A stretch of DNA of 9,906 nucleotides, from IMG/VR virus record IMGVR_UViG_2563366903_000019; one strand, given 5' to 3'. Shown one piece after another: positions 8,451 through 9,906 of this stretch; position 1 is the first letter of the stretch; the number at the start of each line of letters is the position of its first letter. The position numbers and the translations under genes are program-made. Origin of the DNA: a virus (taxonomy: Duplodnaviria > Heunggongvirae > Uroviricota > Caudoviricetes). A model generated the notes under the pieces. It had not been told where the DNA came from. It was given only the letters and a program-made list of their open reading frames with translations, and ran no database searches.

Positions 8451-8864
8451 ATGGCAACGAATGAAAGCATCATGGCGCTACCGCTGGCGAGTAAATTTAA
8501 AGCAGAAGCGCGGGCAATGGCTGACAGAGGTTTATCAACCTACGAGGCCGTATATCAACTCAACAAACTGGAAGAACAGGACAAGCCGCGCGCTGATGCG
8601 ATTATGGCGCTTCATGAACATAACGACTATCAGCCGCTGTTACGTGCAATGGCAAACGTGCCATGTATTAGCGTCGATAATGCTCGTGAAATCCTGAACA
8701 TGACCATAGAGCAGGAGCGCCCAAAGGTTGCACCAGAGCTTACCGCAGCCTTTGAAAACTTTATGGACATGCACAGCCCGCAAGCCGTATCAGCTGGCAT
8801 GGCGTACGATGGCAGAAACCAGGGCGATGACGGCGACATCGATCGCATGCTGAAAACCATCTGA
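8451..8864 (+). CDS. Hypothetical protein (137 aa), last gene of capsid operon
   Basis: ORF with AGGGGA 4 nt upstream, followed directly by a terminator; acidic C-terminus; occupies the position lambda gives to FI but shows no similarity to it that I can see. Confidence 0.6.
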   Translation: MATNESIMALPLASKFKAEARAMADRGLSTYEAVYQLNKLEEQDKPRADAIMALHEHNDYQPLLRAMANVPCISVDNAREILNMTIEQERPKVAPELTAAFENFMDMHSPQAVSAGMAYDGRNQGDDGDIDRMLKTI

Positions 8865-8868
8865 GACA

Positions 8869-8894
8869 AGGCCGGAGAAATCCGGCTTTTTTTT
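8869..8894 (+). terminator. Rho-independent terminator
   Basis: Stem GCCGGA / TCCGGC with loop GAAA, followed by T8; nearly identical in sequence to the terminator at 6595-6618. Confidence 0.65.
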
Positions 8895-8960
8895 ACGGGT
8901 CCTTTCCGGCATATGGACCCGTTACGGGGCGGCGACCTCGCGGTTTTTCGCTATTTATGA
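8895..8960. other. cos site: lambda-like cosQ-cosN core (cosN GGGCGGCGACCT at 8927-8938)
   Basis: ACGGGTCCTTTCCGG ... GTTACG GGGCGGCGACCT CGCGGTTTTTCGCTATTTATGA; the last 33 nt match the left end of lambda (GGGCGGCGACCTCGCGGGTTTTCGCTATTTATGA) at 32/33 from memory, and the upstream part resembles the lambda right end. Confidence 0.75.
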
Positions 8961-9031
8961 GCCTTTTCAGGGGGGGGTGGTGGTTTTGTTGTTTGCTCTA
9001 TCTTTATGAATGAAAAGGGAAAGATGCAAAC

Positions 9032-9069
9032 AATACACCAACCTGAAGCAGTAATTAAGTTGGTGTATT
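9032..9069. promoter_or_regulatory. 11-bp perfect inverted repeat in cosB-equivalent region (candidate TerS binding site or 5' hairpin)
   Basis: AATACACCAAC (9032-9042) and GTTGGTGTATT (9059-9069) separated by 16 nt, abutting the ATG at 9071. Confidence 0.4.
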
Positions 9070-9070
9070 A

Positions 9071-9613
9071 ATGAAATCGCACCTGATGAACAAAAAAAAC
9101 ATGGCGAAAAGCTGCCGTGTAAGTGCGACAGCGTTCGACAAGTGGGGAGTGACTCCCGTTGAACGTAAAGGCCGTGAGGCGTTTTACGATGTTGCCAGCG
9201 TGATAGACAATAGGGTTAACAATGCAATTAGCCAGCTTACAAACGACAAAGGCGATATTGATGATGATGAACTCTTACGAGTCAGGATCAGATTACTGAC
9301 AGCACAGGCGGAGGCGCAGGAACTTAAAAACGAGCGCGATCGCGGTGACGTGATCGATACTGAGTTTTGCCTGTACGCGCTTTCAAAGCTGGCGAGTCAG
9401 ATTTCATCAATCATGGACAGCCTCCCGCTTACTATGCAAAGGAGCTTCCCACAGATTACCCCCGCCATGCTGGATAGGCTTAAAAGGGAAGTGGTTAAAG
9501 CCTGTAATGCCAGTGCCAGAGTTGCCGACAACCTCCCACAGATACTGGCTGATTACTTGAAAGAAACAACCGGAAACGTACCGGAAAAGTTGCAGCCGAA
9601 TAAAGATAAGTAA
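9071..9613 (+). CDS. Terminase small subunit, lambda Nu1-like
   Basis: C-terminal two-thirds align with lambda Nu1 as recalled: LLTAQAEAQELKNERDRGDVIDTEFCLYALSKLASQISSIMDSLPLTMQRSFP vs LTRAQADAQELKNARDSAEVVETAFCTFVLSRIAGEIASILDGLPLSVQRRFP. The N-terminal HTH region is divergent. Alternative start at ATG 9086 (MNKKN..., matching Nu1 MEVNKK...). Confidence 0.85.
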   Translation: MKSHLMNKKNMAKSCRVSATAFDKWGVTPVERKGREAFYDVASVIDNRVNNAISQLTNDKGDIDDDELLRVRIRLLTAQAEAQELKNERDRGDVIDTEFCLYALSKLASQISSIMDSLPLTMQRSFPQITPAMLDRLKREVVKACNASARVADNLPQILADYLKETTGNVPEKLQPNKDK

Positions 9614-9624
9614 CGTAGTACGCT

Positions 9625-9906
9625 ATGACTGAATCCGAAATACTGCGATTAATCCGCCGCGTCTCTGGAATCAGCCAGCAGGCTGACGAACAGACCACGC
9701 AGCCGGACAGCGTGACAGCCGAAAACTATGCGCGTGTTGTTGCTGAGGTGATGCGCCGTGATGGTATAGAACTTAATGGCGTGGATATGCGCAACATACG
9801 AACCAGAGTTCTTGAGTTGCTGGCCTACCGTCGCCGCGTGGAGATGTATCGGGAGAAGGAGAAAATAACGTACCACTGGAAGAAGCCGGAGCGGTTGCGG
9901 CGGTAA
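9625..9906 (+). CDS. Hypothetical protein (93 aa) downstream of terS
   Basis: Complete ORF ending at the window edge, 11 nt after the terS stop; weak SD; Arg-rich C-terminus; not similar to the lambda gpA N-terminus as I recall it. Confidence 0.5.
   Translation: MTESEILRLIRRVSGISQQADEQTTQPDSVTAENYARVVAEVMRRDGIELNGVDMRNIRTRVLELLAYRRRVEMYREKEKITYHWKKPERLRR

Follow-up and report, generated by a model that had tools for sequence, protein, structure and literature searches.

A predicted chimeric cos site in an EcCICFT073-type chromosomal island: helper-like cosQ-cosN joined to a three-site cosB and a Nu1-family small terminase gene

Introduction

Chimeric cos sites are established in phage-inducible chromosomal islands (PICIs). 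In the island EcCICFT073, cosQ and cosN resemble those of lambda and phi80, cosB is unrecognisable, and transfer requires this site, cos1 (Fillol-Salom et al., PMC6092414, PMC6739421). Its foreign cosB is explained by an adaptor protein: cosB of cos1 is recognized by Rpp together with the small terminase subunit (TerS), and Rpp proteins, which are thought to be derived from TerS, function only with the TerS of the helper phage (PMC6739421). They are short (139–154 aa) and lack the C-terminal 30–40 residues by which TerS binds the large terminase (PMC9026076). From an analysis of four cos sites of this kind, Murialdo and Feiss put forward one R3-like site, at bp 48–65 (PMC9026076). In SatelliteFinder, TerS counts among the core components of PICIs, with redirection of packaging as its role (PMC10085698). 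Here we describe the cos region of IMG/VR record IMGVR_UViG_2563366903_000019, a stretch of 9,906 nucleotides (the window) which, judged from its gene content, is an EcCICFT073-family PICI, a satellite of lambda-like phages.

The two elements have much in common: they belong to the same island family and share gene order, terminator, cosQ, spacer and cosN (64/68 identical positions at −32 to +36) as well as a junction directly after TATTTATGA. In both, a cosB of non-phage type is followed directly by the gene for its presumed DNA-recognition protein. They differ in that (i) the window cosB is unrelated to that of cos1 (22/108 at bp 37–144) and the window has no second, inverted cos2, (ii) the window encodes a 180-aa full-length homolog of Nu1, in place of a 144-aa Rpp protein without the large-terminase-binding region, and (iii) three R-like repeats are present in the window, none having been reported for cos1.

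Coordinates given below are those of the window and refer to the plus strand unless stated otherwise; bp numbers are counted from the first base of cosN. Comparisons within the family are based on 86 loci with relatives of the window TerS, taken from IMG/VR and from assemblies. They represent 57 distinct upstream regions, and include islands of Enterobacter and Kosakonia whose TerS proteins are only 56–59% identical to that of the window. A genome scan with the single protein gave nothing and an alignment-based scan gave 3 loci; the comparative set came from IMG/VR.

Results

The left half of the cos region is of the lambda type

A first-pass annotation of the window had described a cosN that, with its flanks, matches lambda nearly base for base, and this was borne out. 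The 12-nt cohesive-end sequence, GGGCGGCGACCT, is present once in the window (8927–8938) and is identical to that of lambda and phi80 at 12/12 positions (10/12 for N15). As in other lambda-like cos sites, it is flanked by CG dinucleotides (TTACG-GGGCGGCGACCT-CGCGG). The cosQ sequence, ACGGGTCCTTTCCGG (8895–8909), is the same as in lambda and N15 and one base off that of phi80; it is one of several blocks conserved among the 57 unique relatives, and its distance from cosN is that of lambda (cosQ lies about 17 bp upstream of cosN in sites of this kind). The spacer between them (8910–8926) ends in TTACG and is present in a version, GGCATATGGACCCGTTACG, that is shared with phage PhiR5_1 and EcCICFT073 cos1. 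On the other side of cosN lies a conserved spacer leading to cosB (bp 13–46; 8939–8972), which includes CGCTATTTATGAG, a near-invariant sequence in the family and the apparent site of a recombination junction. From this anatomy, the terminase would be predicted to cut at 8927–8938, by staggered nicks that leave particle DNA with 12-nt 5′ cohesive ends as in lambda-like cos sites.

The alignment to lambdoid cos regions that the annotation had proposed was carried out without gaps, anchored on cosN. Between −32 and +36 the window is identical to lambda at 57/68 positions (21/24 at bp 13–36, 24/32 in the left 32 nt) and to PhiR5_1 at 64/68. Within the left 32 nt, the cosQ core ACGGGTCCTTTCCGG and TTACG are identical to lambda and the 12-nt spacer between them differs. 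At bp 37–144 the identities fall to 40/108 for lambda, which is background, and to 41/108 for PhiR5_1. A BLASTN search of 50,697 phage records retrieved about 100 lambda-type cos sites, with E values of 5e-15 and, at the lowest, 1e-23, and all alignments end by 8972. The departure from lambda cosB reported by the annotation is therefore real, but it begins farther to the right than had been stated, since phage cos sites remain similar to the window beyond TATTTATGA and across TTTTCAGG, as far as bp 46. HK97, whose terminase and cos are of an unrelated type, was not among the BLAST matches listed.

The right half contains three R-like elements

To the right of this boundary, a 12-bp G/T-rich element can be made out three times in the window cosB, in direct-inverted-direct order like R3-R2-R1 of lambda; the three copies are putative binding sites of TerS. 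The R3-like element, GTGGTGGTTTTG (bp 51–62; 8977–8988), is situated within a conserved block, TGGTGGTTTTGTTGTT (8978–8993). The R2-like element lies on the minus strand (bp 105–116; 9031–9042; plus-strand sequence CAATACACCAAC), and the R1-like element, GTTGGTGTATTA (bp 133–144; 9059–9070), abuts the start codon of the terS gene. Between R3 and R2 lies an A/T-rich spacer (8997–9030) with a conserved CTATCT.TATGAAT motif, a possible bend site at the position occupied by I1 in lambda. An R3 near bp 50–65, with R2 inverted relative to both R3 and R1, is the arrangement of lambda-like cos sites, and the R3 register agrees with that of R3 in lambda (bp 49–64) and N15 (bp 48–59) (PMC9026076, PMC4669245). 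No lambda R sequence was found in the window.

R2 is the most conserved block of cosB, and its ACACC(A/C)AC core is invariant in 13 diverse sequences across genera. When the reverse complement of the R2 12-mer was scanned along the plus strand, the top matches in diverged representatives were located at bp 50–52 and 133–134. The joint shuffle p for the two matches was 0.002 in the window and <0.0005 in L015, the most diverged E. coli-type locus. The R3 position (bp 50–52) was recovered in 7/7 representatives tested, those of Enterobacter and Kosakonia included. A degenerate pattern, GTKGGTGTWTTG, matches exactly at 8977 (plus), 9031 (minus) and 9059 (plus), within 95 bp. A repeat finder independently paired the R3 region with the R2 region in imperfect inverted repeats (18 nt at 78% and 20 nt at 70%), for which the Smith-Waterman p was ~0.013. 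No further R copy with ≤2 mismatches is present inside terS.

Two other features of this region had been singled out by the annotation, namely an 11-bp perfect inverted repeat and a G8 tract. The inverted repeat (9032–9042/9059–9069) is present and coincides with the R2/R1 pair, but it is perfect only in the subgroup of relatives to which the window belongs. Over 12 distinct relatives, 67% of its positions pair, no compensatory changes occur and all variation breaks pairs. For these reasons two of three protein-binding sites, evolving separately, would fit the data better than a conserved hairpin, and a reading as an RNA hairpin was rejected for lack of covariation.

The G8 tract (8970–8977) also exists, but it is incidental: relatives vary there in length and composition, and its candidacy as a functional element was rejected on that account. 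Compared with the usual G6TGGTGGTGG it is shorter by one base; relatives have G9, G11 or one GGT fewer. The tract belongs to a length-variable G-run/(GGT)n tract (8970–8983; G8TGGTGG in the window) that overlaps the start of R3. The distance from cosN to the ATG codon of terS is 145 bp in 78/86 loci and 144 bp in the window. Among close relatives (L019–L098) this tract, which looks prone to slippage, shifts the spacing between cosN and cosB by 1–3 bp. EcCICFT073 cos1 has CACCACCACCAC at bp 54–65 (L005:32603–32614), the reverse complement of the window (GGT)n at bp 51–59 (8977–8985); this likeness could be due to chance or to an inverted common motif. A direct repeat, TATGAATGAAA/TATTAATGAAA, was observed at 9005–9015 and 9066–9076 (61 bp apart), with the second copy spanning the terS start codon. 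It may be the trace of a duplication behind the R sites.

The small terminase is itself a mosaic

The gene directly downstream of cosB (9071–9613) encodes a full-length small terminase of the Nu1 family (180 aa; Pfam PF07471, E = 2e-23). The Pfam Nu1 score is 83 bits against a cut-off of 30, and the match to PHROG 57 covers residues 1–175. The protein aligns with lambda Nu1 from residue 3 to 180, at 35% identity and with the C-terminal segment included; its best phage match is N15 gp1 (46% identity). No similarity to RppA was detected (BLASTP E = 1.4), and the window contains no RppA-like ORF. Proteins of the Rpp type are defined by a length of ~139–154 aa, homology to RppA/B/C and absence of the C-terminal large-terminase-binding part, and the 180-aa TerS falls outside this definition. 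A PDB sequence search returned no gpNu1 or RppC match.

Different parts of this protein point to different phages. Residues 1–47 are 60% identical to N15 gp1, with which they share deletions relative to lambda Nu1, and 32–38% identical to lambda-type proteins. The recognition-helix region ATAFDKWG has 6/8 positions in common with VQAFDKWG of N15 gp1, and the sequence aligns with the DNA-binding domains of N15 and lambda, from which a winged helix is predicted. The core and C-terminal half are closest to PhiR5_1 Nu1 (60.6%; 64% for the core alone), the product of the lambdoid phage that also gave the best cosQ-cosN match. As judged by these comparisons, TerS is a mosaic of an N15-like DNA-binding domain and a lambdoid core and C-terminal half. 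Within the island family the DNA-binding domain is best conserved (74–98%) and the C-terminal 41 residues are most variable (29–68%); residues 126–166 of the window protein are 51% identical to PhiR5_1 Nu1 and 32% to lambda Nu1. The E. coli island TerS ends in a 14-aa tail, TTGNVPEKLQPNKDK (9572–9613 in the window), a tail that neither the Nu1 proteins of phages nor the TerS of Enterobacter-type islands possess.

No gpA/TerL homolog was identified in any locus with this TerS (87 loci, 33 of them with ≥1.5 kb of downstream sequence), and no Rpp gene is present.

The two halves of the cos region reassort

The conserved blocks of the comparative set are cosQ, TACG-GGGCG, CGCTATTTATGAG, TGGTGGTGGTTTTGTTGTT, CTATCT.TATGAAT, CAAYACACCAACCTGAA and AAGT..TAT..ATG. 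The annotation had called the cosB of the window private. It is unrelated to phage cosB beyond bp 46, but it is by no means confined to the window, the cosB-TerS cassette being present in 772/5426 complete E. coli genomes (14%), and its partner TerS has an N15-type DNA-binding domain. Carriers of the cassette include O157:H7 and other pathogenic lineages. The rppA-type cassette was found in 97/5426 of the same genomes, making the TerS cassette ~8 times commoner; the rppA search would have overlooked Rpp variants of greater divergence, for example rppC.

Ten cosN 12-mers, all differing at bp 6–12, and ~20 cosQ-cosN spacers occur in the family, one spacer type being that of EcCICFT073 cos2. Natural variation of phage cosN is located in the right half, at bp 7–12 (Feiss et al., PMC4669245). 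In the 86 loci, cosN and spacer variants are paired with several cosB subtypes in many combinations, so that the halves reassort freely. An IMG/VR scan for the rare sequence TACG-GGGCGGAAGGCG-CGCGG yielded 55 loci (L099–L153), ~50 of which run into a true lambda cosB (AAGGCGTTTCCGTTCT...) and lambda Nu1, and 4 into the island cosB and TerS; the phage-type and island-type right halves split directly after TATTTATGA. The GGGCGGAAGGCG variant of cosN is thus common among lambda-type viral contigs with true lambda cosB and Nu1. Given this free reassortment, and the sharing of GGGCGGAAGGCG up to a junction at TATTTATGA, the two halves have separate histories: the left half follows lambda-type phages, the presumed helpers, and the right half travels with the DNA-binding domain of TerS.

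Islands with ..VSATAFDKWG.. in TerS have the R2 sequence ACACCAAC, and those with ..VG(V/L)T(A/S)FDKWG.. have ACACCCAC, a weak hint of protein-DNA co-variation between the TerS helix and R2. Some association was also observed between the C-terminal type of TerS and the cosQ/cosN type, inseparable from clonal linkage.

Genetic organization of the island

The window (9.9 kb) extends from the start codon of a tyrosine integrase gene to the stop codon of an ORF of 93 aa. It encodes, in this order, the integrase, AlpA, a DUF4222 protein, a DUF927 primase, SSB, PerC, a 68-aa protein, a gpE-family capsid protein, a gpD-family decoration protein, a 137-aa protein, the Nu1-family small terminase and the 93-aa protein. 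This is the order characteristic of PICIs (int – alpA – primase/replication – morphogenesis/packaging) in an element of ~10 kb without tail or lysis genes. The closest genomic match, in E. coli N10 (96% identity across 98% of the window), is inserted between cspD/yljB and clpS. The window is syntenic, gene for gene, with EcCICFT073, which was located in strain CFT073 at L005:22931–33700; the sole difference in gene order is that cos1, rppA (144 aa) and the inverted cos2 of EcCICFT073 are replaced in the window by one cos and the gene for the 180-aa small terminase subunit.

The capsid and decoration proteins are 43% and 37% identical to those of lambda. Together with the 35% identity of TerS, these values uphold the earlier statement that capsid and terminase are only moderately lambda-like, and the proteins of the window are much more diverged from lambda than is its cosQ-cosN DNA.

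An intrinsic terminator (8868–8896), composed of a 9-pair stem (8868–8889) followed by a T run, stands after the 137-aa ORF and directly 5′ of cosQ; the same hairpin precedes EcCICFT073 cos1. For the 137-aa ORF itself (8451–8864), which separates cos from the decoration gene, a match was obtained to the C-terminal portion of phrog_53, the head-maturation-protease family (E = 7e-10). In lambda, the Nu3 scaffold is nested in the head-maturation-protease region; direct BLAST of the ORF against lambda Nu3 gave no match. Three genes, for a capsid, a decoration and a scaffold-like protein, may be present together in the island. The last ORF (9625–9906; 93 aa; phrog_1561, a family of unknown function) is common to EcCICFT073, where it lies beyond the inverted cos2; in the window, without cos2, it begins 11 bp after terS.

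The Enterobacter (L012–L014) and Kosakonia (L016) relatives contain the same capsid, decoration, cos and TerS module in islands embedded in a helper. They are inserted in gene E, for the capsid, of a lambdoid prophage; the integrase gene adjoins the truncated E and is encoded on the other strand.

Discussion

The region 8868–9070 is probably the cos site of the island, composed of a helper-type cosQ-cosN and a satellite cosB. This agrees with the first-pass annotation, which had proposed a helper-type cutting site joined to a satellite recognition region for the island's own TerS; the PICI context and comparison with relatives support this proposal, the more so because the published EcCICFT073 has a chimeric cos of the same kind (PMC6092414, PMC6739421). 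The left half of the window site (cosQ, spacer, cosN and bp 13–46) would have stayed identical to the cos of lambdoid helpers, or been exchanged with it repeatedly, allowing the helper large terminase to nick there, and to end packaging there. Packaging would then proceed in three steps: (i) the island TerS would bind R3 and R2 (and R1) through its N15-type winged-helix domain, (ii) its lambdoid-type C-terminal half would recruit the helper large terminase, and (iii) this enzyme would nick the helper-type cosN and later terminate at cosQ/cosN. Concatemers of the island, and not helper DNA, would be cut and packaged, and interference with the helper may occur.

The following observations weigh against this scheme. 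In our literature search, no study came up in which a Nu1-type TerS paired with a cosB of its own had been tested or dissected for a cos-type PICI. In the window R3 matches the R2-derived motif at only 8/12 positions, and the R motif was derived from the same sequences in which it was scanned. R1 is degenerate in other subgroups and absent from the Enterobacter/Kosakonia relatives, where the first site is kept, and it overlaps the likely ribosome-binding region. The consensus of integration host factor (IHF), WATCARNNNNTTR, has no match with ≤2 mismatches in the R3-R2 interval (bp 63–104), an interval in which lambda and phi80, used as controls, each have a 1-mismatch match (at bp 79 and bp 74, respectively); the consensus is weak, and the DNA may bend in spite of this negative scan. 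A search for a sigma-70-like promoter of terS, in the stretch from the upstream terminator to the gene, was negative. The identity of the TerS C-terminus to known phage Nu1 proteins is only 32–51%, so its binding to the large terminase of a given helper is not assured. The AlphaFold2 model of TerS, built from an alignment of 11 sequences, has a mean predicted local distance difference test score (pLDDT) of 50.6, and <50 over residues 1–50, values too low to confirm the predicted winged helix.

The strongest of the other explanations, though an unlikely one, is that the protein acts, also or only, in the manner of Rpp. The island TerS would form mixed dimers or oligomers with helper Nu1 by way of the conserved core, and the mixed complex would read the island cosB, the large terminase being brought in by the helper subunit or by both; this mode would also poison helper packaging, and it overlaps with the scheme above without excluding it. 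In a syntenic island, rppA stands precisely where terS is in the window, a core 64% identical to PhiR5_1 Nu1 makes mixed oligomers plausible, and Rpp proteins, with their supposed TerS origin, act only with helper TerS (PMC6739421). However, the island TerS is of full length and aligns to the end of Nu1, unlike the truncated Rpp proteins (PMC9026076), and it bears no detectable similarity to RppA. The N15-type deletions in its DNA-binding domain may also not fit the lambda dimer interface that Rpp mimics.

It is considerably less probable that cosB is simply that of an N15-like or Monarch-like class of real phages and that the terminase of such a helper packages the island, with the island TerS as a passenger or an aid. 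N15 is indeed the closest phage by TerS (46% identity over the whole protein and 60% for the DNA-binding domain, with the shared deletions and the similar recognition helix), its R3 is likewise G/T-rich (GAGGTTGTTGTT; PMC4669245) and has TTGTTGTT in common with the window, and “Monarch” prophages, which are N15-like, have been described with a tripartite cosB (Feiss et al. 2015, PMC4669245). Monarch and N15 are said to have the same recognition helix, from which the window differs at 2/8 positions; going by this description, the window lies outside the Monarch group. N15 itself has a single R3, without R2 or R1, and a remote inverted site inside gene 1, whereas the window cosB is tripartite and thus not a simple cosB of the N15 type, and TTGTTGTT lies 10 bp farther from cosN in the window. 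An alignment of N15 R3 in register with the window cosB gave weak identity only, and the two are at most possibly equivalent. Moreover, none of the 50,697 phage records is similar in DNA beyond bp 46, even the best phage TerS is only 46% identical, and every examined locus with a TerS at least 56% identical has island architecture, without a large terminase gene. The cosN and spacer also match lambda-type phages and not N15.

Least probable of all is a hairpin, of RNA or DNA, at 9032–9069 with a regulatory effect on terS, such as concealment of the ribosome-binding region: the predicted RNA fold is stable (−16 kcal/mol; z = −3.4), its 3′ arm includes GGTG and stops one base before the start codon, and a terminator without a detected promoter lies upstream, but besides the broken pairs described above, the left arm is invariant and the right arm drifts, Enterobacter and Kosakonia keep the left arm without the right, and a third, direct copy exists at the R3 position.

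With lambda, the proposed chimeric cos shares cosQ, cosN, most of the sequence at bp 13–36 (21/24), the R3 register, the direct-inverted-direct order, a terS gene directly downstream and a TerS homologous over its full length. The differences concern the R sequence (GTnGGTGTWTTG in the window, CGTTTCC-type in lambda), the R3-R2 distance (~54 bp against 60) and the R2-R1 distance (28 bp against 42), the absence of an IHF consensus and the absence of a large terminase gene after terS. The scheme also resembles that of the staphylococcal pathogenicity islands (SaPIs), in which a small terminase encoded by the satellite pairs with the helper large terminase and redirects packaging, a role that for the window is read from the sequence. 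SaPI packaging is of the headful (pac) type, with a TerS of an unrelated family and a separate protein, Ppi, that blocks the helper; the window would use a cos-type mechanism with defined ends, and has no known equivalent of Ppi.

We may tentatively go further, to a view that we hold possible rather than probable. The cosB-terS cassette would be a self-sufficient replacement of TerS, through which the island could use a helper's large terminase and for which, unlike Rpp, helper TerS is unneeded; it could represent the commonest, and perhaps the ancestral, hijacking device of enterobacterial PICIs, from which Rpp arose by C-terminal truncation. The cos site and the protein would each be a mosaic of two parts, and the parts that face the helper (cosQ-cosN and the TerS C-terminus) might be re-matched again and again to current helpers by recombination at TATTTATGA, and slippage of the G/(GGT)n tract might tune the spacing between cosN and R3.

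The principle of a chimeric cos, established for the sister element, will not surprise specialists. The window would represent a second solution at the same locus, where a complete small terminase comes with a lambda-style cosB of its own that has three sites. Specialists should find this cosB, the mosaicism at two levels and the prevalence of the cassette useful and directly testable. If the proposed reading is true, it would extend the “own TerS” strategy of the SaPIs to cos packaging, in contrast to the Rpp adaptor, and provide a natural test of which halves of TerS and cos carry helper or satellite specificity. It would also bear on how the Rpp proteins arose, and supply a defined, compact packaging signal for engineered transducing particles.

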